Source: Gloeobacterales cyanobacterium
Lineage (GTDB): Bacteria > Cyanobacteriota > Cyanobacteriia > Gloeobacterales > PMM-0068
DNA: 64,000 bases
NCBI GenBank assembly: GCA_038245785.1
Contig: JBBRSB010000010.1
Location: forward strand, 1 to 64,000
Direction of reading: 5' to 3'
Below are positions 9,746 to 25,943 of the stretch, one piece after another; the first letter of the stretch is position 1, and each line of letters begins with the position of its first letter. The position numbers and the translations under genes were made by a program. The notes below the pieces were generated by a model, which was not told the origin of the DNA, ran no database searches, and saw nothing but the letters and a program-made list of their open reading frames with translations.

Positions 9746-10477
9746 TTAAGAGGGGAATCTACGATCTAATTCTTGAGACAGCCACTCTTGAAACATTCTA
9801 TGGACGATTTCCTGTCGTCTTTGATCTGTTAATTCTGCAGGAATCAATTCTTCAACCAAGAGCAGGTGATATCCTTTTTCCGTTCTGAGTGGACCAATAA
9901 TCTCATGTACAGGTGCAGTAAACGAAGCTTCAGCAATATCAGAGTCTAAGTCTGAGCGATAAAATATTCCTTCATAACCGCACTGGTGTCTACGTCGCTC
10001 ATCAATATCGTAGAGATGGGCCGCTTCATAGAAACTAAGTTCTTGCTCTTTAATTTGATGAATAACGTCATCTACAACTCTTTCATAAGGGACAATAGTC
10101 TGATAAAGTACGACCTGATCAAATTCAGCCTGGTGTTCATAAAAAAATCTTTCTGCAGCATCGAAGAATAGAGAAGTAGCCAATTTTTGTCGAATTAAAC
10201 GATCATAAACTCCTGCTTCTAGATCATCTATATTAACTAGCTGCTGCTTGATCCAAAGCAAAATATCTGAGGCTTGTTCTAGATCTGTTGCTATAAACAT
10301 TTGATTGATATTAGCTTGCACTTCCTCGGGAGCAACGATAAGATTTCTCTCCTGAGCAACTTGATCAATTATTTTTTGACACAATATTTGATAATAAGTT
10401 TCTTTTAGTCGAAGAGTTTTTTGCAGAAATCTCAAAATCTCATCTGGTGTAACACGTAACTTTGAGAGGCTAGACAT
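9746..10477 (-). CDS. PpiC/SurA-like peptidylprolyl isomerase/foldase of peptide export cluster (copy 2)
   Basis: SFYEAAHLYDIDERRRHQCGYEG...IIGPLRTEKGYHLLLVE parvulin-like region; paralogue of 14319..15113. Confidence 0.85.
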   Translation of the reverse strand: MSSLSKLRVTPDEILRFLQKTLRLKETYYQILCQKIIDQVAQERNLIVAPEEVQANINQMFIATDLEQASDILLWIKQQLVNIDDLEAGVYDRLIRQKLATSLFFDAAERFFYEHQAEFDQVVLYQTIVPYERVVDDVIHQIKEQELSFYEAAHLYDIDERRRHQCGYEGIFYRSDLDSDIAEASFTAPVHEIIGPLRTEKGYHLLLVEELIPAELTDQRRQEIVHRMFQEWLSQELDRRFPS

Positions 10478-10568
10478 TTTTTAATTCTATTTTGGTAGAT
10501 TTTCACAAGCTTTACCTGCATTGCAAACCTATATAGATATGGATTTCAAATATCAGTTGTGAACTAAT

Positions 10569-10609
10569 AAATTTCAGTCTAAGACTGACTACGCCTTAGA
10601 CTGAAATTT
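10569..10609 (-). terminator. Hairpin downstream of peptide gene 10632..10913
   Basis: 15-bp arms AAATTTCAGTCTAAG / CTTAGACTGAAATTT. Confidence 0.7.
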
Positions 10610-10631
10610 TTACAGTTAAGCACTAAGAGAT

Positions 10632-10913
10632 CTAACTGGTAGATGTCGAGGTAGATACCTTTCCATCTTCAACAGAAGCACTAGCGTTAGAAGATGATGA
10701 CTTCACTATCGAGTTACTACTACCGGGATCATTACTACCGAAGGAAAAAGAGAAACTTGCAGGGCCACTAGACACAAAAGAAGGAATACCAGGCAAGAAA
10801 CCGAAACCACCAATGAAAGGGATAGGAGGTACAGAAGCACCACCTCTCACTCTATAAACACAAGGGGAATAAATTTCAAAAAAGTTTAAATCAACAATGG
10901 ATAAAGATTTCAT
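10632..10913 (-). CDS. Double-glycine leader peptide, Pro/Phe/Gly- then Ser-rich core
   Basis: Leader MKSLSIVDLNFFE...RVRGG; GAGGA RBS; lies inside the PCAT cluster. Confidence 0.8.
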   Translation of the reverse strand: MKSLSIVDLNFFEIYSPCVYRVRGGASVPPIPFIGGFGFLPGIPSFVSSGPASFSFSFGSNDPGSSNSIVKSSSSNASASVEDGKVSTSTSTS

Positions 10914-11200
10914 TGGACTTTCCTCGCAGAATGGTTTGGGTATTCAGCACATTGACTACTTCTAGCATCATTGCAAATCAGATAATGAAAAATAATTATA
11001 TTGCAGACAATGATAAAAGCTATAGATTAAGTTTACACCAAACCTATTTCCTTGATTTAAAGAAACAGTATTAGCATATTAGAAGTGGCCATATTACATT
11101 CAGCAAAAAGGTATTTATCAAAACCCCTTAAATTCTCTATGAGCTTAAAGAATTCATAAAGAAAATACAACTTAGAGCTGAAAAGTTCTGAGACAACCTA

Positions 11201-11240
11201 CTTCATAAGCTATCTAGATTAATTTAGACAGCTTATGAAG
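11201..11240 (-). terminator. Hairpin downstream of peptide gene 11255..11479
   Basis: CTTCATAAGCT...AGCTTATGAAG arms. Confidence 0.7.
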
Positions 11241-11254
11241 CTTGACCAACGATA

Positions 11255-11479
11255 CTAACTAAAATTAATACCATCTTGACCATTAAAAGAAATGTTATCT
11301 GCAATTGATATTGCAGTAGCATTACCTCTGAAGGCCTGAGCGGTAGAATAGGCTGTAGCATACTGCCTAACATCGATAACGTTGTACTGAACGTTGCTTT
11401 GTGAGAAATAGCCTAAGCCACCTGCAAGATTTGTTGATGGAGAAACTTCTCCCAGATAGCTCAAATCGGAAATAATCAT
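11255..11479 (-). CDS. Double-glycine leader peptide, N/Q/Y-rich core (tandem paralogue 4, most divergent)
   Basis: MIISDLSYLGEVSPSTNLAGG leader plus a 53-aa core that aligns without gaps to the three neighbours; AGGAG RBS. Confidence 0.92.
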   Translation of the reverse strand: MIISDLSYLGEVSPSTNLAGGLGYFSQSNVQYNVIDVRQYATAYSTAQAFRGNATAISIADNISFNGQDGINFS

Positions 11480-11559
11480 AGTTTTGCTCCTGCAAGCTCA
11501 TGTTTAATAGAAAAGGTCGAGCTGTTACAAACAATATAAATGCATATACAAAATCATGT

Positions 11560-11572
11560 TGCCACTTTGGCA
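11560..11572 (-). promoter_or_regulatory. TGCCA-N3-TGGCA palindrome 21 nt upstream of TATATT -10-like box
   Basis: + strand TGCCACTTTGGCA; the same site recurs upstream of each cassette. Confidence 0.75.
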
Positions 11573-11609
11573 TAAATCCTAATTAAAAATAGAAAATGCA
11601 TACCTTCAG

Positions 11610-11657
11610 AGAAAATACTGGTGACTACTAAATATAGATATGTCACCAGTATTTTCT
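11610..11657 (-). terminator. Hairpin downstream of peptide gene 11722..11946
   Basis: 16-bp arms AGAAAATACTGGTGAC / GTCACCAGTATTTTCT; a second weaker hairpin lies at about 11667-11701. Confidence 0.7.
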
Positions 11658-11721
11658 TTATTTCAATAGAGTACCTCTAATACGTAGGTCGAAGTACTCT
11701 ATATTTCAAGTTGAGCTTTCA

Positions 11722-11946
11722 TTAACTAATGTTGTAGTTGGACTGGTAAATGCTCGAAGAGTTGGGGACATAGGTAGAGGCGTATGCACTACCTCTAAAA
11801 GCTTCCGCATTGGAATAACCATTGGCGTACTGACTAACGTAGGCACTGTTGTACTGCGAGGTATTTTGATCAAAGAAACCAGCGCCACCTACAAGGTTAG
11901 TTGCTTCGGAAACTTCTTCCAAATAGACCAGATCAGAAATTTTCAT
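11722..11946 (-). CDS. Double-glycine leader peptide, N/Q/Y-rich core (tandem paralogue 3)
   Basis: MKISDLVYLEEVSEATNLVGG plus 53-aa core; AAGGAGAGA RBS. Confidence 0.95.
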   Translation of the reverse strand: MKISDLVYLEEVSEATNLVGGAGFFDQNTSQYNSAYVSQYANGYSNAEAFRGSAYASTYVPNSSSIYQSNYNIS

Positions 11947-12032
11947 TGGTTCTCTCCTTTAAATTAGTTTTCTGTTTAAGAACAACATTATGTTGCTCAT
12001 AATTAATATAGCTATCTTCTGTGTTCTCATGT

Positions 12033-12045
12033 TGCCACTTTGGCA
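12033..12045 (-). promoter_or_regulatory. TGCCA-N3-TGGCA palindrome 22 nt upstream of TATATT
   Basis: + strand TGCCACTTTGGCA. Confidence 0.75.
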
Positions 12046-12092
12046 GTGTTTCTCAATTCCAATACTCTTGATCAGAATATTATTTATCCAAA

Positions 12093-12141
12093 AAATAGCT
12101 GGAAGTTTCTTGTTTAACTAAGAATTAAACTCCAGCTATTT
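12093..12141 (-). terminator. Hairpin downstream of peptide gene 12155..12379
   Basis: AAATAGCTGGA...TCCAGCTATTT arms with an A-run on the left (U-tail on the minus strand). Confidence 0.65.
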
Positions 12142-12154
12142 GCCAACTTTCATG

Positions 12155-12379
12155 TTAGCTATAGTTCACATTATTCTGGTAAATTCCAGAGTAGTTGGAT
12201 ACACCGGTGGAGGCATATGCATTACCTCTAAAGGCTTCAGCATCAGAATAGCCATTGGCGTACTGATTGACATAAGCATTGTTCCACTGCGAGGTATTTT
12301 GATCAAAGTAGCCAGAGCCGCCTACAAGGGCAGTTGCTTCAGAAACTTCTTCCAAATAGACCAAATCAGAAATTTTCAT
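12155..12379 (-). CDS. Double-glycine leader peptide, N/Q/Y-rich core (tandem paralogue 2)
   Basis: MKISDLVYLEEVSEATALVGG plus 53-aa core; AAGGAGAGAG RBS. Confidence 0.95.
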   Translation of the reverse strand: MKISDLVYLEEVSEATALVGGSGYFDQNTSQWNNAYVNQYANGYSDAEAFRGNAYASTGVSNYSGIYQNNVNYS

Positions 12380-12465
12380 TGTCTCTCTCCTTAAAGTTAG
12401 TTTTCGCTTAATAACAACATTAAGTTGCTGTATAAATACTATAGATATTTTCTTGATTTTAGTGT

Positions 12466-12478
12466 TGCCAATTTGGCA
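12466..12478 (-). promoter_or_regulatory. TGCCA-N3-TGGCA palindrome 22 nt upstream of TATAGT
   Basis: + strand TGCCAATTTGGCA. Confidence 0.75.
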
Positions 12479-12522
12479 GGTATTCTATTAGGAAATAGAC
12501 ATATTTTTCAAAGAGTAAATAC

Positions 12523-12556
12523 AATGCAAGCTTTTTGATTATAAAAAGCTTGCATT
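12523..12556 (-). terminator. Hairpin downstream of peptide gene 12575..12799
   Basis: 14-bp arms AATGCAAGCTTTTT / AAAAAGCTTGCATT. Confidence 0.7.
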
Positions 12557-12574
12557 AGTCTTCATTCTCCAAAG

Positions 12575-12799
12575 TTAGCTAACGTTGAAGTTGGACTGGC
12601 CAATGCCTGAGTAGTTGGATACATTGGTATATGCAGATGCATTACCTCGAAAGGCTTCAGCATCAGAATAGCCAGTGGCGTACTGACTGACGTAAGCATT
12701 GTTGTACTGCGCGGTATACTGATTAAAGAAGCCAGAGCCGCCTACAAGGGCAGTTGCTTCGGAAACTTCTTCCAAATAGACCAAATCAGAAATTTTCAT
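12575..12799 (-). CDS. Double-glycine leader peptide, N/Q/Y-rich core (tandem paralogue 1)
   Basis: MKISDLVYLEEVSEATALVGG plus 53-aa core; AAGGAGAGAG RBS. Confidence 0.95.
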   Translation of the reverse strand: MKISDLVYLEEVSEATALVGGSGFFNQYTAQYNNAYVSQYATGYSDAEAFRGNASAYTNVSNYSGIGQSNFNVS

Positions 12800-12885
12800 T
12801 GTCTCTCTCCTTCAAATTAGTTTTGTAATTAAAACAACTTTATTAGGTTGCTACTATTACTATAGACAATAGAGCTTGAGAAGAT

Positions 12886-12898
12886 TGCCACTTTGGCA
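12886..12898 (-). promoter_or_regulatory. TGCCA-N3-TGGCA palindrome 21 nt upstream of TATAGT
   Basis: + strand TGCCACTTTGGCA. Confidence 0.75.
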
Positions 12899-12938
12899 GA
12901 TAGTTTCAGTCATCATGAAACACCAAGAATATGTCTTC

Positions 12939-12986
12939 AAAGACTAATGGAAGCTTCTTAATCATAAAAAGCTTCCATTAGTCTTT
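12939..12986 (-). terminator. Hairpin downstream of the peptide pseudogene
   Basis: 18-bp arms AAAGACTAATGGAAGCTT / AAGCTTCCATTAGTCTTT; homologous to the 12523-12556 hairpin. Confidence 0.7.
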
Positions 12987-12997
12987 AGCCTCCAAGA

Positions 12998-13087
12998 TCA
13001 GCTGAAGTTAATATTGGACTGACCAACTTAAGAAAGATTAGATGAAACTGTGGATGCAAATGCACTTCCTCCTTTAGCCTCTGAGGA
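12998..13087 (-). pseudogene. Degenerate fifth copy of the tandem peptide (C-terminal half, internal stop)
   Basis: Minus strand reads SSEAKGGSAFASTVSSNLS*VGQSNINFS*, aligning with DAEAFRGNASAYTNVSNYSGIGQSNFNVS. In-frame TAA at 13028-13030; leader not recognisable. Confidence 0.8.
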
Positions 13088-13225
13088 AAGTAAGGGTGGA
13101 CCGCTTGCTTTTGGCGGTATAAGAGTATGTCTTGCTCACATATGCCTGTGTCTAAACTAATAGCTCTTGATTCATTACCTGAGCAGAGCAGACTAGAAAT
13201 ATAGATAGCCTTGATCTGAATAGTT

Positions 13226-13238
13226 TACCAATTTAGTA
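13226..13238 (-). promoter_or_regulatory. Decayed copy of the palindromic site upstream of the pseudogene
   Basis: + strand TACCAATTTAGTA (3 mismatches), still 22 nt from TATATT on the minus strand. Confidence 0.45.
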
Positions 13239-13300
13239 TGCATTTACTCTGAGAATCTTTAATCTGGCTCAAACCTTCCAGCAATCTAATTCATTAGAGA

Positions 13301-13349
13301 CAATAAGAGCTGTGAGGCGTTTCATTGAATCGCTTCATAGCCCTTATTG
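13301..13349 (-). terminator. Imperfect hairpin downstream of 13378..13668
   Basis: CAATAAGAGCTGTGAGGCG...CGCTTCATAGCCCTTATTG. Confidence 0.55.
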
Positions 13350-13377
13350 CTAATCTAAGATAGCAGATAAGAAGATT

Positions 13378-13668
13378 CTAACCTCTAGCACTGGATTTAG
13401 CATTGGCGAAACCACCAATTGAAGTCGCTGCAGAAGCTGCCCCAGCGGCACCACCAATGCTGAGTAAATCAACTTTGAATCCACTTAGTTGATCTCCTGT
13501 CACGTTGTAGTCTGTAGCATATCTAGTATCATAGGCAGTATCGTATGCTAGTGAGTAACTAGGGGTGCTACTTGCACTAGCTGAAATACCACTTCCTCCG
13601 CTTATACAAATTTCTCCAGCACATACCGCCTCAAGAAAGTTAAGATCAGTGATTGCGAACTGACTCAT
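13378..13668 (-). CDS. Double-glycine leader peptide, 96 aa, Ser/Ala/Tyr-rich
   Basis: Start at ATG 13668 after AGGAG RBS: MSQFAITDLNFLEAVCAGEICISGG|SGISASASS...AYDTAYDTRYATDY... Confidence 0.85.
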   Translation of the reverse strand: MSQFAITDLNFLEAVCAGEICISGGSGISASASSTPSYSLAYDTAYDTRYATDYNVTGDQLSGFKVDLLSIGGAAGAASAATSIGGFANAKSSARG

Positions 13669-13704
13669 GGCACTTCTCCTTTTTTTATACAATGAGGCTA
13701 GTTC

Positions 13705-13935
13705 TTAGCCTACAGCGACAGAAGAAGATGCAGCGACGGAACTAGAGAAAAGACCTGCTACGCCAGCTGTCTTCGTAAACGTTTTGGTCTCAGTAAGATA
13801 GCCAAGAGCATCTGCTTGCGCTAAGGAACTAGCTGAAGCTATAGGCGGAAAGCCATAAGTTGGCACACCGCTTCCTTCTACACAACTTGCATCTTCAGAG
13901 ATGGCTCCTAGATAGTTTAGATCAGAAATAATCAT
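13705..13935 (-). CDS. Leader peptide of the same family (GS/SG variant cleavage site), Ser/Ala/Thr-rich core
   Basis: MIISDLNYLGAISEDASCVEGSG...; GGGAGA RBS. Confidence 0.85.
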   Translation of the reverse strand: MIISDLNYLGAISEDASCVEGSGVPTYGFPPIASASSLAQADALGYLTETKTFTKTAGVAGLFSSSVAASSSVAVG

Positions 13936-14016
13936 TAGATTTCTCCCTTATAATTCACTGGAAACAGCCTTTTTGGTTGTCTACAAACAGATTAATTGAG
14001 AAAGATAAAAACATGT

Positions 14017-14029
14017 TGCCAAATTGGCA
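14017..14029 (-). promoter_or_regulatory. TGCCA-N3-TGGCA palindrome 22 nt upstream of TAATCT
   Basis: + strand TGCCAAATTGGCA, upstream of the 13935 gene. Confidence 0.7.
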
Positions 14030-14055
14030 TCTTTTAAAATTACGTATATTTAAAC

Positions 14056-14090
14056 AAAAAAATGCTTAGTTCACCAGAGTAAACCAAGCA
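14056..14090 (-). terminator. Intrinsic terminator on the minus strand
   Basis: Minus strand TGCTTGGTTTAC-TCTG-GTGAACTAAGCA-TTTTTTT (12-bp stem with two G-U pairs and a U7 tail). Confidence 0.75.
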
Positions 14091-14263
14091 AGGCCGACAT
14101 TATCAGGGGTTCGAAAACTTTTTCTAGTTCTTAAAGAATTATCTAAAAGGGATAGCTAAAATTCTATTGCTATCTATATTTTCAACTTCTTTAGAGGAAA
14201 ACATAAGAAGCTAAAGTTAGTAGTTTTAATAGGCAAGCATCCTTTTAGATAATGGACTGTATC
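14056..14263 (-). ncRNA. Candidate structured small RNA (~205 nt)
   Basis: Bounded by the palindrome/TATAGT promoter (14270-14309) and the U-tailed terminator. Contains a long imperfect hairpin closed by ATTATCTAAAAGG (14138-14150) / CCTTTTAGATAAT (14241-14253). Only very short ORFs. Confidence 0.45.
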
Positions 14264-14296
14264 GATAACACTATAGATAATCTAATTAATAGCAGG

Positions 14297-14309
14297 TGCC
14301 ATTTTGGCA
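14297..14309 (-). promoter_or_regulatory. TGCCA-N3-TGGCA palindrome 21 nt upstream of TATAGT
   Basis: + strand TGCCATTTTGGCA; -10 box at 14270-14275. Confidence 0.7.
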
Positions 14310-14318
14310 TTAATCTAT

Positions 14319-15113
14319 TCACAAATTACTTTGAGAAGAAGAATGATTAGACTTTGAGTCAAAACTAGACAGCCAATGCAATTTTTCTTGCTCCAGCCAT
14401 TGCCTAAATAAATCCTCAGTTATTTTCTGATGAAGCGGTTGGATTAACTCTGCAGAAAGAATTTGTTCAATCATGAGTAGATGCCATCCCTGATCGTTGG
14501 ACACTGGCCCTGCTATCTCTCCTACCGTCACGCCAAAAGCGGCGGTGGCTAAATCTGGTTTCATTTCCCAGCGACTGACCTCACCTTCATAGCCACAGCG
14601 ACGGCCTCGCTGCATGTTGACATCAAACTGATGGGCCGCTTCGAAGAAACTAATTTCTTGGTCTTGTATACGATAGAGCACCTCGTAGGCCAATGCCTCT
14701 GAAGCGAGCGTAATTTGATACAGTACAGCCCGATCATACCCCAGTCGATTTTCTGCAAAGACTTGATCCGCCTTCTGAGAATAGAGCTGATCAGCCAACT
14801 TGCATCTCAGCACCTGTTTTTGCAAACCTGCTTCAAAGTCTTCCTCATCAACCTGCTGTTCATTGAGCCAGGTTAAAGTATCTGAAGCTTTTTCCAGGTG
14901 ATGCTGTCTACGGAATTGGTCTGCTTCCATTTGAATTTCTTCTGGCGTAACTTCGATACCTCGACTCTGTGCATTCCAGGCAATTATCTCTTGGTACAAC
15001 AAAGTATCTCTTACCTTTTTAAACTGGAATGTCTGCCGTAGATAACTACTAACAGCTTTGAATTCTTCTTGTTGGTTTGAGGCTGTCAATTTAGGGAAAG
15101 CAACATTTAGCAT
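14319..15113 (-). CDS. PpiC/SurA-like peptidylprolyl isomerase/foldase of peptide export cluster (copy 1)
   Basis: GIEVTPEEIQMEAD SurA-N-like helix; SFFEAAHQFDVNMQRGRRCGYEG...GPVSNDQGWHLLMIE. Confidence 0.85.
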   Translation of the reverse strand: MLNVAFPKLTASNQQEEFKAVSSYLRQTFQFKKVRDTLLYQEIIAWNAQSRGIEVTPEEIQMEADQFRRQHHLEKASDTLTWLNEQQVDEEDFEAGLQKQVLRCKLADQLYSQKADQVFAENRLGYDRAVLYQITLASEALAYEVLYRIQDQEISFFEAAHQFDVNMQRGRRCGYEGEVSRWEMKPDLATAAFGVTVGEIAGPVSNDQGWHLLMIEQILSAELIQPLHQKITEDLFRQWLEQEKLHWLSSFDSKSNHSSSQSNL

Positions 15114-15139
15114 GTGTATTCATCCACAAATAGGGGTAA

Positions 15140-15325
15140 TTAGCTAGTGCTGAAGCAAGAGCACGTAGATGATGAGAAGCTTTCCCTATGTCTAGAGGAA
15201 GCCTTTGCCAAAACAGACTGTTTTGTCTGATTTCGTTCAGAGTCAATAACAATACTAGTTGAATCTGCAGTTGCACGTTCATTACAAGAAACAGCATGCG
15301 TTCTTAGAATCTTCTGGCGAATCAT
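15140..15325 (-). CDS. Small Ser-rich protein without GG motif
   Basis: AGAGG RBS 6 nt before ATG; lies in operon orientation between hetP and the PPIase. Confidence 0.55.
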   Translation of the reverse strand: MIRQKILRTHAVSCNERATADSTSIVIDSERNQTKQSVLAKASSRHRESFSSSTCSCFSTS

Positions 15326-15433
15326 AACTAACCTCTTTTAGAGCCTCATCTTATAACCAAGAGTCAATGCACTCAGCATAGACAGGCTAATCAATCAATT
15401 GTCGCTATCTCGACAAAATTTTACTTAAAGCCC

Positions 15434-15796
15434 TTAGCTGGATAGCATAAATTCCATACTTATACCAGTAGGGTACAATGGCATCATGCCGCCCCGCACT
15501 CTTGACTGAAATGCAGTTTCTAGATGAGGCAAATCATCAATAACAGCAACTCTTTGAGCGTTCTGTTTGCGAAGCTGAGAAACTCCACAGTTCAAAACAT
15601 ACTGAGCCGATTTGTCTGATTGCAGGACAGACTGCTTTCTAACTTGTATATTCTCTTTCAGAAGCCTATTGTAGGTGCGGTAGGGAATGTAGTGCAGGGG
15701 ATTAAGCCCATTAGAACGCAACAGCAGCACACAAGCCCAGGAATATTTACCATCTACAATCGCGTCAATGATCTGATCTAATTTTTCAGGAAGCAC
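15434..15796 (-). CDS. hetP: HetP family protein
   Basis: [43 protein letters not shown] is the HetP signature; C-terminal IDDLPHLE...VRGG. Confidence 0.92.
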
Positions 15797-15838
15797 GTTT
15801 TTACCCTCTTATGTTTTCAAAAGATACATCTGGCATTT

Positions 15839-17245
15839 CTAAAGGCTAAAACCACCTTTCTGTAACTGCTCAATGGGATCGAGAAGAAAACTAATAATTC
15901 GGCGCTGACGAATAACGACTTCAGCACTCGCTGTCTGACCACTCTTGAGTTGAACAGGACGACCATTGCTGATAATATAAGAACGATCAAGTTTAATTTT
16001 CAGCTTATAGATTTCTCCTAATTGGGAGTCTGTTTGAGCATCAGGCGATATGCTTTGCACTCGACCTGATAACATGCCAAACTCTTGATAGGGATAAGCA
16101 TCTAGTTTGATATTTACAGGCATACCCGTTCGTGCAAAACCTGCCTCACGATTGGGCAGACGGGCTTCTAGAACAAGAGGGGCTTTTTGTGGAGCAAGCT
16201 CAGCAATAGTTTGCCCAGGCTGGATAACCTCTCCCACATTTTTAACCTGCAAAGAAGAGACTGTACCGCTAATTGGGGCATAGACAAATCGCCTGCGGAG
16301 GCGCTGTTCAGCCATCTGTAAACGGCTTTGTATTTCGCTTAGTTCAGCATGCGCTTGAGTGACCTGCATTCTGAGTTCTTGAACTTTCTGCTGCGCTTGG
16401 AGGATAGCCGTATTTCCTTCCGCTCGTTGTTTTAGCAAGAGTTCTCGATTCTGAGCGATAGTCTGATTAGCATTATCTAAATCTCCTGAATGCTGGATCA
16501 ATTGAGCTTCACGATCATGGAATGCTTGCTCGGCAGAAAAGACCTGCTCACGGGAAATAGCTCCAGAATTCACTAAAGGAATAAGACGATTTAACCGTTC
16601 TTGATGTCGTTTGATGTCTGCTTGACTCTGCCGGGCCATCCGGCCCAGATTGGCGCTACGGGCCTGCGCTTGGGTAATTAAGCTTTGCTGAGCAGCTTGA
16701 GCCGCATTCGCTTGTTGTTGGCGACTGCTTAGCTCTGCCTGCGCCTGTGCCAGTAAACCTTCAGTCTGGAGAAGGCGCATCTGAGAAGTGTTTAGGAGTT
16801 GTCTCTGAAGATCTATTTCTGTATGTAAGCTTTCTGGCTCCAGATCAACTAGCACTTGTCCTTTCTGAACCGACATGCCTTCTCGAATACGCAGACGGGC
16901 AATTTTTCCTGTCTCAGGAAGCTGAAGTTTGTACAGGCTGCCTTGGGGGACAAGCTTGCCTTGGGCCTTGCCTACTTCATCAATTTGGCCAAACCAACTC
17001 CAAGTACCAACACCCCCAAGAAGCAAGAGTACACCAGCTAAAGCATATAAGGGCAGTCTAGAAGGGGGAGACTGTAAAACTTCCTGCACCGCTGGCGACC
17101 ACTGAGTGATCTCTTGCGTCTGAAAATGCACTAAGGCTACAGACTCCGCCGAGGTGTGTTGGAGTTGAGAACGGTCTGGTGAAGGTGTGGAAGAAGGAGT
17201 AATCATAGCTATCCCCATTAAAAAGAGTATGGAAACAGAATTCAA
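15839..17245 (-). CDS. HlyD family type I secretion membrane fusion protein
   Basis: Single TM segment, long Gln/Ala coiled coil, APISGTV, KLDAYPYQEFG and LKSGQTASAEV. True start may be ATG 17218 or 17206. Confidence 0.95.
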   Translation of the reverse strand: MNSVSILFLMGIAMITPSSTPSPDRSQLQHTSAESVALVHFQTQEITQWSPAVQEVLQSPPSRLPLYALAGVLLLLGGVGTWSWFGQIDEVGKAQGKLVPQGSLYKLQLPETGKIARLRIREGMSVQKGQVLVDLEPESLHTEIDLQRQLLNTSQMRLLQTEGLLAQAQAELSSRQQQANAAQAAQQSLITQAQARSANLGRMARQSQADIKRHQERLNRLIPLVNSGAISREQVFSAEQAFHDREAQLIQHSGDLDNANQTIAQNRELLLKQRAEGNTAILQAQQKVQELRMQVTQAHAELSEIQSRLQMAEQRLRRRFVYAPISGTVSSLQVKNVGEVIQPGQTIAELAPQKAPLVLEARLPNREAGFARTGMPVNIKLDAYPYQEFGMLSGRVQSISPDAQTDSQLGEIYKLKIKLDRSYIISNGRPVQLKSGQTASAEVVIRQRRIISFLLDPIEQLQKGGFSL

Positions 17246-17292
17246 GAGAGAATCTTTCGATCGGATGGGCTATTTTTTAGGTTCGCCTCTCC

Positions 17293-20200
17293 TTACAGCA
17301 CCAGTTGTTGCTGTGCTAAGTACGCGTAAAGCCCTTTGCGTTTAATCAGCTCAGCATGAGTTCCTTGTTCTGCAAGTACACCTCGGTCCAGCACAAGAAT
17401 TTGATCGGCATCGCGCACGGTAGATAGGCGGTGCGCAATGACCAGCATGGTGCGTCCTTGCCGGACTTCTTGAAGATTTTGCTGGAACCGTCGTTCTGAC
17501 TCTGTATCTAAAGAACTGGTCGCCTCATCCAAAATTAAAAATTGTGGATTGTGCAGGAGGGCGCGCGCAATAGCAATGCGCTGTCGTTGCCCCCCAGAGA
17601 GGTTAGCCCCCCGCTCTCCCACTTTCGTTTCATAACCTAAAGGGAATTCCTGAATAAAGGCATGGGCTTCCGCTAATTGGGCAACCTCGATCACTTGCTC
17701 CAGATTGTACTGAGGCTGAAATAAGGTGATATTTTCGCGAATAGTACCGGAGAAGAGGAAGCATTCCTGAGGAACCACACCAATCTGACGGCGTAAAGAT
17801 ACAGGAGAGACTTGAGCAAGATCATAGTCATCAAGCAGAATACGTCCCTTGTCTGGTTTGTATAATCCCTGAATCAACTTAGCCAGGGTACTCTTGCCAG
17901 AACCCGAACGCCCTACAATCGCAACCACCTGCCCTGGTTGGATTTCAAAACTTAAATTCTGCAGCGTATTCGTCTCAGCATCTTTGTTGTAGCGAAAGGT
18001 GACATTCTCAAAGCAGAGATGGCCGTGGAGGAAGGGTAACTGAATGCCTTGTTCTGGACTGGGAGTTTCCGGAGTCGCCTCAAAAACATCATTCAAACGC
18101 TCTACGGATACCACTACTTCTTGGAACTCATCCCATAATCCTACAAATCTCAAGACAGGCCCAATTACGTTTCCGACCAGCATATTGAAGGCCACAAACT
18201 GTCCAATAGTAAGTTGTTCTTGAATAACGAGGTTAGCTCCATACCAGAGCAGGGCCGTACTCCCTAAGGTGTTGAATAAACTACCCACAGAACTTAAGCC
18301 ATTTGCCAGTTTTTGTCCCTTGAAAACAGAGTTGAGCGTAGCCGTGAAACGGTCCTCCCATAACCAGCGCAGATCCCGTTCGGCCGCCGCAGATTTTACG
18401 GTGGCGATACCCGAAAAGGTTTCTACTAGAGTCGAGGTGGCAGCAGCTTCCCGATTAAAAATTTCTCGTGAGATACGACGCAAAAAGGGAGTAGAACCCA
18501 CAGTCAGCAAGACAAAGGGCGGAATCAAAGCTAACACGAGCAGCGTAAGTTGCGCATTGTAGTAAAACATCAACCCCAGGTAGACGAATACCATAAGGGT
18601 ATCCAGCCAGACAGAAAGGGCCTGACGGGTGAGAAATGCTTGAATCTTTCGATTTTCCTGGACACGGGTGATCAGGTCTCCCACATGCCGCATTTCAAAG
18701 AAGCCCAAGGGCAGTGTCAAGGCATGGTTGATAAAACCACTGATCATCGTCAAATCAAGTCGATTGGAGAAATAGTCCAATAGGTACTGACGGAAAGCAG
18801 ACAATCCGACCTGCCACACTCCGAACAGGATAAGGCCAATAGAGAAGACATTCAGGGCTACCTGACTTTTTTGGACAACCACTTTGTCTAGAATAATCTG
18901 CGTAAATAAAGGAGTGACGAGACCCAGAATCTGCAGTAGAAAAGTCATCAGCAAAATCTGGGCCATGGTGTTTCGATAGGGCCATAACAACCCAAGAAAA
19001 CGCCACAGGGAACTTTTACTTTCCGGGGTTTCTTTAAAGCGTGGCGTGGGTTCCAAAAGCAGAGCATAACTGGTCCAATTTTTTTGGAATTCAGCTGGTT
19101 TGAGGCGGCGGATGCCCATAGCCGGATCAGCCACGACTACTTTTTGCGGAGTGACTTTATAAACCACTACGTAATGGTCTCCCTGCCAATGGGCAATCCA
19201 GGGATGGGGTTGCGTTACCATCCGGTCAAAACTGGCCCGCACAGGACGGCTCTGAAAGCCCAGCGTTTCTGCCGCCGCCGCCAGAGACCGTAAAGAAGCA
19301 CCATTCCGTCCTACCCCAATTTGCTCTCGCAATTGGTTGATATCTAAACGTTTACCCCAGAAAAGACCAATCATGCGCAAGCAGGCTGCACCACAATCAG
19401 CCGCACTTTGCTGTTCTGCAAACGGATAGCGCCACCGAAATTTAGGGAGGAGGTTAGGACCGGGAAAAGCAACAGCCACCTTTTGCTTTTTTGGAGGGGG
19501 CGCTTTCTGACCAGGCCCAGAGACTACTTCCATGGGGGTAGGCACTATAGGCTTGACGGCAGTAGCAGAAAGAACAGATTCCCAGAGCGCTGAGGGCAGG
19601 TGATATACCTGCACATCCTTCACTGCTAGCCAATCACTTTGATTTGGCTCCCAGCGGCTTCCCACGGACACGGATTCTCCAACAGCATCCGTACTAGGCT
19701 GCACAGCCCCTTCCTTGAGCCAGTAAATTCCTGGTTTCAGACTGCTAAAGCGAGTCTTGGAAGGAATATTCTCTAAAGTGGCCTCTTCAGCCAGTTTTCT
19801 AAACTGTGGACCAGACAGGGTATGTAATCCTGCTTTCAAGCGTAAGAATAGAAGCTTTTGCTGATAAGCCAATTGTTCCGTAATGAGTTTTTGGAGCTTG
19901 GGATACCGTGACTGCCAGTGCGCAAGCCTATCTTTGGGTAAGCACCAAACACGAACAGGTCCGGCCGCAACCATCTGATGCGCAAACTCCGCTTCTGCAG
20001 AAACAAAAAATAAATCGGCAGATGTGAGTAAAGCCACATTAACCTTTGTCCCGTTTGCCTGAGTAGCAATGAGTCGGGCCCGACCACTGACAATTACAAA
20101 CAGCTCAGAATCTTGTTTGTCTGCAGTTAAACCGACTTCAGCAATAACCTCACCAAGGCCATATTCTTTGAGCTGTGGATATTGGGATAGTTCCTGTAAA

Positions 20201-20310
20201 GCCTGAGGAGGGAGTTGCTCTGCCCAGTGACTAGACTGGAGTAGTTCTAAAGGCCAGTTTTGGGATAATTCGATATGCTCAGAAGGCCAAGCGGGCACAC
20301 TTTTCTGCAT
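17293..20310 (-). CDS. Peptidase-containing ABC transporter (degenerate cNMP-binding region + C39 peptidase + TMD + NBD), HetC/PteB-like
   Basis: QQSAADCGAACL (catalytic Cys), HWQGDHYVV and ADPA; Walker A GRSGSGKS, LSGGQRQR, ILDEATSSLD and IAHRLST. Confidence 0.96.
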   Translation of the reverse strand: MQKSVPAWPSEHIELSQNWPLELLQSSHWAEQLPPQALQELSQYPQLKEYGLGEVIAEVGLTADKQDSELFVIVSGRARLIATQANGTKVNVALLTSADLFFVSAEAEFAHQMVAAGPVRVWCLPKDRLAHWQSRYPKLQKLITEQLAYQQKLLFLRLKAGLHTLSGPQFRKLAEEATLENIPSKTRFSSLKPGIYWLKEGAVQPSTDAVGESVSVGSRWEPNQSDWLAVKDVQVYHLPSALWESVLSATAVKPIVPTPMEVVSGPGQKAPPPKKQKVAVAFPGPNLLPKFRWRYPFAEQQSAADCGAACLRMIGLFWGKRLDINQLREQIGVGRNGASLRSLAAAAETLGFQSRPVRASFDRMVTQPHPWIAHWQGDHYVVVYKVTPQKVVVADPAMGIRRLKPAEFQKNWTSYALLLEPTPRFKETPESKSSLWRFLGLLWPYRNTMAQILLMTFLLQILGLVTPLFTQIILDKVVVQKSQVALNVFSIGLILFGVWQVGLSAFRQYLLDYFSNRLDLTMISGFINHALTLPLGFFEMRHVGDLITRVQENRKIQAFLTRQALSVWLDTLMVFVYLGLMFYYNAQLTLLVLALIPPFVLLTVGSTPFLRRISREIFNREAAATSTLVETFSGIATVKSAAAERDLRWLWEDRFTATLNSVFKGQKLANGLSSVGSLFNTLGSTALLWYGANLVIQEQLTIGQFVAFNMLVGNVIGPVLRFVGLWDEFQEVVVSVERLNDVFEATPETPSPEQGIQLPFLHGHLCFENVTFRYNKDAETNTLQNLSFEIQPGQVVAIVGRSGSGKSTLAKLIQGLYKPDKGRILLDDYDLAQVSPVSLRRQIGVVPQECFLFSGTIRENITLFQPQYNLEQVIEVAQLAEAHAFIQEFPLGYETKVGERGANLSGGQRQRIAIARALLHNPQFLILDEATSSLDTESERRFQQNLQEVRQGRTMLVIAHRLSTVRDADQILVLDRGVLAEQGTHAELIKRKGLYAYLAQQQLVL

Positions 20311-20383
20311 ACAATTCTCCTCAAAGATTACGTAACGGAAAAGCAGATAGATTGTTGCTCTTTTTTAAGTTAGGGACTAAAAG

Positions 20384-20399
20384 TGTATCTGAAAATACA
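20384..20399. promoter_or_regulatory. NtcA-box-like site
   Basis: TGTA-TCTGAAAA-TACA (GTA-N8-TAC), about 75 bp upstream of the PCAT start; no TAnnnT at the canonical 22-nt spacing. Confidence 0.4.
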
Positions 20400-20509
20400 A
20401 TGTTTTGTTTCTTGACGAGTGCATCCTACACCCTAAATTAAGTCGTTACAACAGCCCTTTCTTATATTTTCTTTATATTTGTTAATTAGCGACATTTATA
20501 AGTTCTATT

Positions 20510-20544
20510 AGTCCGGACATAATTAAATTAATTATGTCCGGACT
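20510..20544. repeat. Perfect inverted repeat, 17-bp arms
   Basis: AGTCCGGACATAATTAA-A-TTAATTATGTCCGGACT. Confidence 0.9.
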
Positions 20545-20740
20545 TGCTTAATCCAGCATTTGAAATGCCTTACTCAAAAGATGCATTTTAGAGGAGTTCT
20601 ATTCCTTACTGTATAGTCAATACACAAGATAACAAGCTATTAAAATAGTCATCTTTTTGCAGAATATAACAATATTTGGAGTGGTCGCTTTTGTGCAAAG
20701 GTCAACAAGTTTTGTCGTGAACTTTCTTCATTTTTTGTGC

Positions 20741-20779
20741 ATTGAAAGATCTTTAGGTCGTATTGAAAGATCTTTAGGT
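20741..20779. repeat. 18-bp direct repeat with 21-bp period
   Basis: ATTGAAAGATCTTTAGGT at 20741-20758 and 20762-20779; each copy contains the palindrome AAAGATCTTT. Confidence 0.9.
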
Positions 20780-20789
20780 ATCGAAAAAC

Positions 20790-20802
20790 TGCCAAAGTGG
20801 CA
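20790..20802 (+). promoter_or_regulatory. TGCCA-N3-TGGCA palindrome 21 nt upstream of TATGAT, facing rightwards
   Basis: TGCCAAAGTGGCAACA, the exact reverse complement of the 11557-11572 site. Confidence 0.7.
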
Positions 20803-20867
20803 ACACCTCTTTATGGTTTTATATATGATGAAGGGATAGGCTTTCTAGAAACTATATAAAGAGAGCG

Positions 20868-21017
20868 GTGAAATATCCTTTACCTTTAAAGCTTGACAAT
20901 GTAGAACTAGCCAACCTCGATCTTTTGGAAGAGCAAGACAAAAATATTGCCCCTGGGCTACTATTGCGAACTAAGTATGACTTCATCTGTCAAAAGGCTG
21001 GAAAATGTCTTTCTTGA
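20868..21017 (+). CDS. Unannotated 49-aa ORF downstream of the rightward promoter
   Basis: GTG start after GAGAG: MKYPLPLKLDNVELANLDLLEEQDKNIAPGLLLRTKYDFICQKAGKCLS. Confidence 0.35.
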   Translation: MKYPLPLKLDNVELANLDLLEEQDKNIAPGLLLRTKYDFICQKAGKCLS

Positions 21018-23153: not shown

Positions 23154-25943
23154 ATGCCAAACAGTAAGAATCATTTTAAGACGAAGAGCATAATAGTGGC
23201 AGTAGGCTGTGCTTTTCTCATTCAGAGTGGTCTTACTCGAGTTGTAGCCCAAACAAGTAAAAATCTACGGTCCTTTGATGGCACAGATACAAAAGGAAAA
23301 GTGGATATCCTTTGGAAAAACAAAAAGATTGGGCGTGTTGTTGCTTGGTTTATGAATAAAACAACATTCTCTAACGGAAGTATACTTGATCCGGATGGGC
23401 TCTCTTTTCCAGGAGATATTAAAGGCATAGCTGACTTTAATGGAGATAGTAAGCCCGACCTTCTTGTGCGCAAGAGCACAGGAGAAAATACTATTTGGCT
23501 TATGGACGGATTGACTCGTTTATCTTCTAAAGCTTTGCCCGTAGTGAAAGATACTCAATGGGATATTAAGGGAGTAGCTGACTTTAATGGAGATGGTAAG
23601 CCTGATATTTTATGGCGACATCCTACGGGACCAAACGTTGTTTGGCTGATGAAAGGGACCCAATATACCTATGGGGTAGATCTAAAGGCGCAGAACGATG
23701 CCAAGTGGGATATTAAAGGTGTAGCTGACTTCAATGGGGATAGCAAGCCTGATATTCTATGGCGGCATTCTGCAGGAGCCAATGTTGTTTGGCTAATGAA
23801 TGGGACCCAATACACTTCTGAGGCCAACCTAAAATCGCTGAACGATTCAACATGGAATATCAAAGGCGTAGCCGACTTCAATGGAGACGGCAAGCCCGAT
23901 ATTTTATGGCGACATCCAACAGGACCAAACGTCGTTTGGCTAATGAATGGGACTGAATACATTAATGGAGTCGATCTCAATCGTGTTGAAAATCCCACTT
24001 GGGATATCGTTGCTGTCTCCAACACAAGTCCGACAAGCCCTGGTCTATCTTTGACCCCGCCAACGCCTGTTCCACAACCAACGCCACAACCGTCCCCTCC
24101 TCCTTCATCTCCACCAGCACCCGTTCCACAACCAGCACCCGTTCCACAACCAGCGCCCGTTCCACAACCAGCGCCAACGCCTCCACCTCCAACAACACCA
24201 GTCCCTCCTGCTCCGGCCCCTGCTCCCACTGCAGCAGCTTTTAACTACTACATTTCACCTGCGGGCAGTGATTCTAATCCTGGAACCAGCGAAGACAGAC
24301 CATTTCGGAGCATTGAACATGCTAGAGATGTAATCCGAGCCACCAAAGGAACCATGACTAAGGATATTGTGGTTTTCCTGCAAGCAGGCAACTATCGCCT
24401 TAGCAACACGCTTACTTTTAACGAAGCAGATTCAGGAAATAGTGGTTATAAAGTAATTTATCGTTCCTATCCTGGTGAAAGAGCTTCTATCAGTGGTGGC
24501 CGTGATTTGGGAGGATGGATTGCTGGGGCTAATGGAGTTTACAAGCTAGCGAGCAATGTTCCTACTAATTTCCATTTCCGCCAGCTTTATATCAATGGGA
24601 AGAAGGCAGTTCGGGCGAGAACTCCAGACGAAGGAAGTTATTTCCGGATGCAAGGCTGGGATGCAGCAAGTCAACTGCTTCGTCTCAATAGTGCAGATTT
24701 AGCAGGGGCTGGAGTAGGCGATGAAGTGGTTATTCAGCGGAGCTGGAACCAAAACAGATTGAGAATTATGGCCATGAATTCCTATGGGCCCAATGCTCTT
24801 GTTGCTCCAATGTCACCAGAGCGGAACGTGGCCTTTAATCTGTCTACTCTAGATAAATTGAATGGGCAAGCCTATCATTTAGAGGGAAACTTGAACTATT
24901 TGAATACTCCTGGAGAATGGTTTGAAAACTACGGCACGGGAGAAGTTTTCTATAAGCCTCGGCCTGGAGAAAGCTTGTCTGCGAGTAGTGCGGTAGCCCC
25001 TGCTTTGGAAACTATCCTTTCTATAAGAGGAACGCCCACGAATCCTGTACATGATATTCAATTCTATGGTTTAACTTTTGAGCATAGTACTTGGTTGGCT
25101 CCTGATACAGAAGGCTATGTTGGAACCCAAGCCGGATTAGGCCCTACGAATACTCCGATTGCTTCTGCTATTACTGTTAATTGTGCAAAAAATATCCGTT
25201 TTGAACGGAATGTGATGCAACACTTTGGTGGCAATGGTTTGACTTTGGTCATGGGTAGCCAAAACAATCAAATAGTGGGCAATGTTATTGCCGATGTAGC
25301 AGCTAACGGCATCTCAGAAGAATATCTCCCTCGCAACTCAGGAGTTGATGGAGAAAAAATGATTGGAGATGTTATTCAGAATAACTATCTAACTCAGATA
25401 GCCCAAGAGTATTATGGCAGCGTTGGCATCTTTACTGCTTTTGTGGATAGCTTGAAGATCGAGCATAACGAAGTTAGCTATATGCCTTATTCAGGAATTA
25501 GTGTTGGTTGGGGTCACACGCTTGATAGCACCAATCTCAAGAACAATTTAATACGCTACAACAATGTTCACCATGTCCTGACTCTTTTGCACGATGGTGG
25601 AGGAATCTATACTCAATCTAAACAACCAGGGACCGTGATTGACTCGAATTATGTTCACGATATTGTCCGTTCGGTTTGGACCCATGTCTTTCCTATAGCC
25701 GGAGTTTATCTAGATAATGGCTCAAGCGGTATACAAGTGAGCAATAACGTACTGCAAGGGACAACGGAAACAAGAGCACAGGGAGGATTGCCTGCTGCTC
25801 GACTCTATGAACCCATGTATGTGCAATTTCTGGGGACGCCGGCTCAAAATAACAACATTTTTAATAATGACGGCCAATCTAGTTCAGTGATCCAGAACAG
25901 CGGCATAGAGTCATCCTATGCCGATATCAAAAACGGATTCTGA
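23154..25943 (+). CDS. Secreted modular protein: FG-GAP/VCBS repeats + Pro-rich linker + right-handed beta-helix (GH141-like)
   Basis: Signal peptide; 49-aa repeats DIKGVADFNGDGKPDILWR; PAPVPQ linker; YISPAGSDSNPGT, HNEVSYMPYSGISVGWG, DGGGIYT and GVYLDNGSSG. Confidence 0.85.
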   Translation: MPNSKNHFKTKSIIVAVGCAFLIQSGLTRVVAQTSKNLRSFDGTDTKGKVDILWKNKKIGRVVAWFMNKTTFSNGSILDPDGLSFPGDIKGIADFNGDSKPDLLVRKSTGENTIWLMDGLTRLSSKALPVVKDTQWDIKGVADFNGDGKPDILWRHPTGPNVVWLMKGTQYTYGVDLKAQNDAKWDIKGVADFNGDSKPDILWRHSAGANVVWLMNGTQYTSEANLKSLNDSTWNIKGVADFNGDGKPDILWRHPTGPNVVWLMNGTEYINGVDLNRVENPTWDIVAVSNTSPTSPGLSLTPPTPVPQPTPQPSPPPSSPPAPVPQPAPVPQPAPVPQPAPTPPPPTTPVPPAPAPAPTAAAFNYYISPAGSDSNPGTSEDRPFRSIEHARDVIRATKGTMTKDIVVFLQAGNYRLSNTLTFNEADSGNSGYKVIYRSYPGERASISGGRDLGGWIAGANGVYKLASNVPTNFHFRQLYINGKKAVRARTPDEGSYFRMQGWDAASQLLRLNSADLAGAGVGDEVVIQRSWNQNRLRIMAMNSYGPNALVAPMSPERNVAFNLSTLDKLNGQAYHLEGNLNYLNTPGEWFENYGTGEVFYKPRPGESLSASSAVAPALETILSIRGTPTNPVHDIQFYGLTFEHSTWLAPDTEGYVGTQAGLGPTNTPIASAITVNCAKNIRFERNVMQHFGGNGLTLVMGSQNNQIVGNVIADVAANGISEEYLPRNSGVDGEKMIGDVIQNNYLTQIAQEYYGSVGIFTAFVDSLKIEHNEVSYMPYSGISVGWGHTLDSTNLKNNLIRYNNVHHVLTLLHDGGGIYTQSKQPGTVIDSNYVHDIVRSVWTHVFPIAGVYLDNGSSGIQVSNNVLQGTTETRAQGGLPAARLYEPMYVQFLGTPAQNNNIFNNDGQSSSVIQNSGIESSYADIKNGF
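24114..24167 (+). repeat. Three 18-bp tandem coding repeats (PAPVPQ)
   Basis: CCAGC(A/G)CCCGTTCCACAA x3. Confidence 0.9.

Follow-up and report, generated by a model that had tools for sequence, protein, structure and literature searches.

The DNA analysed here is a 64,000-nucleotide (nt) stretch of a Gloeobacterales cyanobacterium (assembly GCA_038245785.1, contig JBBRSB010000010.1, positions 1 to 64,000; hereafter the window), which carries on its minus strand an export locus comprising a peptidase-containing ABC transporter (PCAT), an HlyD protein, a HetP-family protein, two rotamase-domain proteins and seven leader peptides. Our reading of the whole, to which we give a probability of about 0.45, is that this is a group II export cluster making matrix-fibre peptides, and that a palindrome at about -41, TGCCA-N3-TGGCA, would be bound by HetP as an activator. 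The promoter containing this palindrome is solid as a sequence feature and appears to be undescribed.

The palindromic promoter and hetP

All palindromes of the window, seven of the 15 in the entire genome, fall within the 11 kb of the locus, in agreement with the initial annotation, which had proposed that the locus has a regulon of its own. Each is followed by a -10 box of the form TANNNT 21–22 nt downstream. Six lie on the minus strand, at 14297–14309 (box TATAGT, 14270–14275), 14017–14029 (TAATCT, 13989–13994), 12886–12898 (TATAGT, 12859–12864), 12466–12478 (TATAGT, 12438–12443), 12033–12045 (TATATT, 12005–12010) and 11560–11572 (TATATT, 11533–11538), while the seventh, at 20790–20802 on the plus strand, is directed away from the operon (TATGAT, 20824–20829). 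Five of them, each with its box at 21–22 nt, stand 80–86 nt before peptide starts (81 nt in the case of the site at 14017–14029 and the peptide that begins at 13935).

HetP was found in 86 of 401 genomes of the phylum, and we sampled loci from 30 of the 39 HetP-positive genomes outside family f33, which we read as Nostocales; for 30 of the 46 genomes in f33 we took the best locus of each. Across 41 HetP loci the palindrome occurred 96 times with a spacer of 3, in 35 loci, as against four times at eight other spacers together. TANNNT was found exactly 22 nt downstream at 62 of 89 sites (other offsets, 1–11), and the same distance held for 32 of the 36 peptide genes having a site. A fixed 22 nt to TANNNT places the centre of the palindrome near -41, and class II promoters of the NtcA/CRP type likewise have their palindrome centred near -41, followed after 22 nt by a TAN3T box. 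Judged by this geometry, the palindrome is very probably a class II activator site. When 20 loci were picked by peptide similarity alone (four of them from genomes sampled before), the motif was present in 15, with 34 sites versus one at other spacers; 17 of the 41 peptide genes in these loci had a palindrome, 13 of them with the -10 box at 22 nt. A generic sigma-70 scan stayed at chance level (19 versus 21.3). By eye, off-locus palindromes precede other leader peptides, an RTX-like protein, a secreted-type protein and TTLAxGEE-repeat precursors. Literature listings on the motif, on HetP outside heterocysts and on cyanobacterial curli-like double-glycine (GG) peptides showed no description of TGCCA-N3-TGGCA, the supplements (Wang Figs S1-S2 and the datasets of PMC13342950) being outside the scope of that search.

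Two further sequence features were noted. A perfect 17-bp inverted repeat at 20510–20544, upstream of the transporter, contains two TCCGGA hexamers (DIF1, sigma-HetZ -35-type). In a genus outside the Cyanobacteriia (G052 and G077; L050-L063), we counted 14 sites, with 3–8 strict copies per genome and almost no control matches, and saw no link between these sites and peptide genes.

The palindrome also keeps company with HetP across genomes. At least two strict sites were present in 79 of 85 HetP-positive genomes versus 5 of 100 HetP-negative ones, with a reversed control pattern giving 3 and 9, in a contingency restricted to the 185 genomes of the same class, which excluded 215 genomes from elsewhere. 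Forty of the 85 positives had served to define the motif; all six exceptions are among these 40, so that the remaining 45, mostly of one family, all pass. Ten sites from HetP-negative genomes were examined, and all ten lay inside long open reading frames (ORFs) and lacked a -10 box. In the Nostocales, the palindrome stands downstream of hetP in 20 of 30 loci, 15 of them with a -10 box.

Several observations weigh against a simple pairing of palindrome and HetP. The exact site is missing from six of the 41 HetP loci, and no palindrome lies within 420 nt upstream of the PCAT, HlyD or HetP genes of the window itself. Related genomes are not independent, a single family supplying 46 of the 85 positives. 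In G002, a genome of the same genus, motif and peptide occur on a 2.4-kb contig of a fragmentary assembly that yielded no HetP match. Moreover, an unlinked activator co-inherited with HetP would give the same pattern of co-occurrence.

Export genes, leader peptides and their cores

The transporter (1005 amino acids, 17293–20310) is a long-type, HetC-like PCAT by domain profiles and trees, with a cyclic nucleotide (cNMP)-binding domain (PF00027), a C39 peptidase domain (PF03412), an ABC membrane domain (PF00664) and an ATPase domain (PF00005); the intact protease triad that the initial annotation had seen is C306/H379/D395. The HlyD membrane-fusion protein (15839–17245; TIGR01843) and the HetP-family protein (15434–15796; NF037966, 98 bits versus a cut-off of 45), both already named there, scored above their cut-offs. 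Two SurA/PpiC-like proteins (14319–15113 and 9746–10477) have rotamase domains by domain profiles, and neither has a signal peptide or an N-terminal hydrophobic stretch. Since they lack signal peptides, and since rotamases occur with group I exporters too, the earlier description of them as foldases dedicated to a fibre does not hold, and the first is likely to be a cytoplasmic cargo chaperone.

The seven small genes, all on the minus strand, have in common the leader I-x-DL-x-[YF]...G[GS], and a leader profile trained partly on the seven, when run on the genome's 34,246 small-ORF starts, recovered these and no others, bearing out the earlier count. They encode a 76-residue peptide of the commonest subfamily, with an EGS site and an Ala/Ser/Thr-alternating core (13705–13935); a peptide of 96 residues counted from ATG (13378–13668), probably co-transcribed with the former; three 74-residue N/Q/Y-rich tandem copies, candidates for a major subunit (12575–12799, 12155–12379 and 11722–11946); a diverged 74-residue copy, 53% to copy 2 (11255–11479); and a 93-residue peptide with a Ser/Gly/Phe-rich core and no palindrome upstream (10632–10913). 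That the tandem copies are near-identical and have a promoter each suggests dosage for bulk material. The ORF at 15140–15325 had no family match and was kept out of the peptide count. None of the seven matched Pfam or any NCBIfam model, a test for the cyanobacterial tandem bacteriocin (CTB) family gave no NCBIfam match and an Atlas row at 0.90 with 155 of 256 features that is a lead only, and a word-index search returned the window's own three copies and nothing else. Between iscA and hisD there is neither a modification enzyme nor an M16 peptidase ORF, and no immunity-like gene was recognised in the locus.

Taken together, the PCAT domains, the triad, HlyD and the shared leader support the type I export of double-glycine peptides put forward in the initial annotation. 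With high confidence we expect that the PCAT would cut after G-G or G-S, that export would proceed via PCAT-HlyD and a TolC encoded elsewhere (three TolC-family genes are present elsewhere in the genome), and that the cytoplasmic rotamases would keep the cargo unfolded.

The same module recurs outside the Nostocales. Mapping of co-occurrence, which had been suggested as a check, found HlyD in all 30 non-Nostocales HetP loci, a PCAT in 27, a rotamase in 26 and at least one leader peptide in 27; the proposed non-heterocyst role of HetC-HetP is supported. Of these 30 related loci, 14 contain RTX-repeat genes, as against 1 of 218 own-genome windows; PEP-CTERM-like tails, identified by pattern, occur in seven (one of them spurious) as against 5 of 218. 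The major-subfamily peptide profile finds 168 clusters at 50% identity and has matches in 31 of 201 genomes of the class. ATP-grasp, GNAT-TPR and GT41/GT2-TPR genes are present in some related clusters; thus the initial view of the peptides as unmodified stands for this locus, where no modifying enzyme is found, and fails to cover those clusters, with their ATP-grasp, GNAT and glycosyltransferase genes. In L018 (10508–15645), TPR glycosyltransferases (GT41, GT2) lie directly 3' of hetP, with large TPR-like genes seen there by eye in L026; given this position the cores of L018 and L026 may be glycosylated. Another transporter-HlyD-rotamase cluster, a more distant one, is present in the Nostocales as well (L139-L141; L040, L041, L044), and in L139-L141 the same leader peptides have no palindrome in front of them.

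For the analysis of the cores, 77 matches were reduced to 72 by removing three HetP tails, one outlier and one truncation. The cores are Ser/Thr-rich and most are near neutral; cysteine occurs in only 4 of the 72 and in none of the window's own seven. Side-chain volume alternates along the 72 cores (lag 2, z 9.7; lag 4, z 10.7), and does so significantly in 29 of them individually. The major-subfamily consensus reads Q-x-N-x3-V-x-Q-x-A-x-A-x-A-x-A-turn-G-x-A-x-A-x-A-x-A-x-N-x5-Q-x-N; N-x-[AS]-x-[VIL]-x-Q is present in 47 of 77 major-subfamily cores (shuffled mean 1.0, maximum 5) and [AS]x4 alternation in 62 of 77 versus 13.2 shuffled. This N/Q-anchored strand motif and the alternation of small residues resemble curli half-repeats. 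In one relative, P0012, the core occurs twice, head to tail, in a single chain. A single-chain model of the mature major peptide had a core pLDDT (predicted local distance difference test) of 88–95; no solved fold matched this model and the peptide profiles found no solved relative, while a four-copy complex prediction of the mature peptide scored 0.01 and gives no verdict either way.

There is precedent for such material: EbfG1-3 are amyloid-prone matrix proteins with GG leaders (PMC9981879), MccAB1 is a GG-leader amyloid matrix peptide (PMC13188072), and amyloid hotspots have already been predicted in Anabaena GG peptides of other clusters (PMC12267927). Considering the core pattern, the RTX and PEP-CTERM neighbours and these precedents, we put it at even odds that the peptides are beta-stacking matrix-fibre material, the mature cores of 53–71 residues stacking as cross-beta fibres in which the near-identical N/Q/Y-rich copies would be the major subunit. 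Against this stands the weak alternation of the window's own seven cores (two of seven significant; pooled lag 2, z -0.6; lag 4, z 3.0), as do the origin of 9 of the 14 RTX loci in one genus, the lack of any CsgG match in a search whose controls matched in 4 of 14, and a by-eye comparison in which the minimal curli repeat X6QXGX2NX10, as given in the excerpt of PMC3521004, was not seen in the cores.

Downstream of the divergent palindrome, an ORF of 49 residues (20868–21017, plus strand) is about 30% like the leader of palindrome-controlled TTLAxGEE-repeat precursors of other cyanobacteria (L074, L134, L135) and is possibly a relic, a weak likeness to which no significance test was applied; the repeat precursors we take to be graspetide-like. 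Three kb from the cluster, a 929-residue secreted-type protein (23154–25943) with FG-GAP repeats, a Pro-rich linker and a GH141-like beta-helix is a possible surface or matrix enzyme.

HetP as candidate activator and rival explanations

HetP is the sole regulator-like gene in the window locus, and since the palindrome tracks hetP across cyanobacteria, HetP would be the likely switch among the genes at hand. In the Anabaena heterocyst system it is described as binding DNA and as required for promoters to be occupied by sigma-HetZ (PMC13342950), a hetC lacking the peptidase is fully bypassed when hetP is moderately overexpressed (PMC4133259), and the C39 domain of HetC is active (PMC10986499). 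A regulatory role in the cytoplasm suits HetP better than one in assembly. That it is the activator acting on the palindrome we propose only tentatively, at somewhat less than even odds. The model of the window's HetP has a three-helix domain at residues 1–58 (pLDDT above 90), a disordered linker and tail, and an internal leader-like motif ending in GG. Foldseek returned no match for this model, and other fold matches were at noise level (best Z 4.6, with several helix-turn-helix or winged-helix rows at Z 3.3–4.2). The internal leader might let the transporter bind or clip HetP, which would couple export capacity to transcription, a step that we regard as doubtful.

These weak fold matches count against a direct role of HetP and fit an explanation in which the same matrix regulon is run by another, unlinked but co-inherited activator, HetP being a cofactor, a leader-bearing substrate or a plug. 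HetP has been termed a nonspecific DNA binder (PMC13342950, on another paper's authority), and HetP-GFP was found in the cytoplasm, gathering at heterocyst poles (PMC4133259), both of which speak for such an explanation, as do retention of the internal leader, which a strict pattern finds in 44 of 63 HetP proteins, and the motif without a HetP match in G002. On the other hand, no other regulator-like gene recurred in 40 loci (a listing that covered ORFs of at least 250 residues and reference matches, so that small regulators could escape), and the motif stays by hetP after transporter and cargo decay. We consider the unlinked activator the less probable of the two, though a serious contender.

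Other explanations concern the peptides themselves. They might be unmodified antibacterials of the class II microcin-like kind or peptides that kill on contact, amyloid being at most a storage or secondary form; the export chemistry is the same, clusters of this type were originally annotated as bacteriocin clusters (PMC3140520), and cores vary widely among species, as seen from the 168 clusters. MccAB1, a microcin of the Gly/Ala-rich GG-leader type, is both toxic and amyloid (PMC13188072), and by analogy amyloid and antibacterial roles can coexist, which also tells against reading a strand pattern as proof of a matrix role. However, the absence of a recognised immunity-like gene, the near-neutral, nearly Cys-free cores with their strand-like alternation, the near-identical tandem copies with promoters of their own and the RTX and PEP-CTERM surface-protein neighbours all make an antibacterial role rather improbable. 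Even less probable, in our view, is that the peptides are precursors of peptides made on ribosomes and modified after translation (RiPPs) or of signals, processed in trans by YcaO, by LanM or by the glycosyltransferases and ATP-grasp ligases that related clusters encode. Elsewhere in the genome there are indeed a class II lanthipeptide cluster (C1:8689-18160) and a YcaO gene (C23:20522-22801), some related clusters have ATP-grasp, GT41/GT2-TPR or GNAT-TPR genes, palindromes also precede TTLAxGEE-repeat precursors, and the cores are rich in Ser and Thr. At the same time, the LanM of that cluster has two precursors and a transporter of its own, the window's cores lack Cys, and no enzyme is common to all clusters.

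Returning to a matrix regulon under HetP, its boldest form would make HetP a sequence-specific class II activator whose ancestral job, dating back to the earliest-branching cyanobacteria, was to turn on a type I-secreted, curli-like amyloid matrix, with the transporter controlling HetP via the GG leader and the circuit, having lost its HlyD and cargo, later being co-opted for heterocyst commitment; as a whole this is a speculative proposal that we think unlikely to hold in every part. How HetP acts at the molecular level and what HetC transports are unsettled in heterocyst development (PMC10986499, PMC13342950), and a defined 13-bp site with activator geometry, tracking HetP across the class, makes HetP function directly testable. 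Similarly, a widespread unnamed peptide family now labelled 'bacteriocin' may be a cyanobacterial functional amyloid, of interest for mats, soil crusts and biofilm engineering.

Descent of hetC-hetP, host genome and known systems

Of two quick transporter trees, one had 47 rows and the other, from which redundant rows and the longest branches had been taken out, 29. In both, the window PCAT branches off as the sister of the remaining group II transporters (Shimodaira-Hasegawa-like approximate likelihood ratio, SH-aLRT, 98–99 for the rest), a basal position that suggests an old module, and Nostocales HetC falls among the group II transporters (SH-aLRT 96–97). Of 30 Nostocales loci, three have hlyD fragments upstream of hetP, and the 1.5 kb that follow hetP yielded no leader peptide in any of the 30. 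It is probable, therefore, in our estimation, that Nostocales hetC-hetP would derive from a cluster of this kind after loss of HlyD and cargo; what tells against it is that the data do not compel a placement of HetC within group II (approximately unbiased test, p 0.23). In nine Nostocales loci (L043, L084-L089, L092 and L094), the retained palindrome promoter is followed by a conserved stretch, GAGGTGA, and a short sequence that looks like a decayed ORF.

The host belongs to an early-branching order, as the initial annotation had supposed from the DNA: KaiC was above cut-off in 0 of 14 genomes of the order, and Gloeobacterales are not known to have KaiC. Recent horizontal gain of the cluster was considered, HetP being present in 1 of the 14 genomes of the order (so that its absence from the others has to be put down to loss or to incomplete assembly) and GC content being 36–41% in the peptide region versus 48%. 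It is not favoured, given the position of the transporter as sister to all other group II transporters and the motif-bearing peptide of the same-genus G002. The flanks of the locus are native, HisD and IscS being 92% and 86% identical to same-genus proteins. A contig scan for the locus returned one locus, L009:1-3303, a 3.3-kb contig labelled as a Kovacikia metagenome-assembled genome, with the same HlyD-HetP-rotamase order and 76–79% DNA identity, the same-genus distance for flanking genes; a misbinned contig or a transfer is possible. By eye, contigs C7, C11 and C17 of the host carry three more transporter loci of group I type preceded by rotamase-sized genes.

The architecture of the locus, leader included, was published in 2011: Wang, Fewer and Sivonen (PMC3140520) defined group II 'bacteriocin' clusters by a long transporter, HlyD, SurA, HetP with KIxDLxYLEx10GG and tandem unclassified precursors, leaving function untested in that excerpt, and Micallef 2015 (PMC4558948) repeated the definition with an M16 peptidase as typical but often missing. 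The window locus is a further group II cluster, sharing the long C39 transporter with cNMP domain, HlyD, the SurA-type rotamase, HetP with a KIxDLxYLEx10GG-like motif and the tandem small precursors, and differing in having no M16 peptidase and in its early-branching host. Its PCAT groups with transporters of like clusters, in trees that did not include the named reference proteins of the published clade II. Promoter motif, core pattern and function are not reported in the excerpts of PMC3140520 and PMC4558948.

Compared with hetC (alr2817)-hetP (alr2818) of Anabaena/Nostoc PCC 7120, the window has a related transporter with cNMP and active-type C39 domains and an adjacent HetP with an internal leader (PMC10986499, PMC4133259, PMC13342950), but the heterocyst locus has no intact HlyD or nearby GG cargo, whereas the window keeps the full export module. 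The heterocyst host bears HetR (PMC10986499), whereas neither HetR nor HetZ-related genes had a match in the window host's genome, in a search in which no positive control matched either. EbfG1-4 and PteB of Synechococcus elongatus PCC 7942 are alike in having small proteins with GG leaders, a PCAT together with HlyD, cores prone to amyloid and a matrix role (PMC4997328, PMC9981879), the last being only proposed for the window. Nevertheless, S. elongatus has only groups I and III (PMC3140520) and HetP had no match in any of 14 control genomes, S. elongatus included, while the window has a long-type transporter with HetP; moreover, the EbfG hotspot A-[FI]-N-I-[GS] was not seen by eye in window-family cores. 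The kinship with PteB/EbfG drawn in the initial annotation thus gives way to an analogy. Unlike curli CsgA/CsgB, the window system relies on type I export and has no CsgG or curlin Pfam match; MccAB1 is similar as a GG-leader amyloid matrix peptide (PMC13188072), with no immunity gene recognised in the window; and the palindrome differs in sequence from those of NtcA/CRP class II promoters, being the 13-bp TGCCA-N3-TGGCA.

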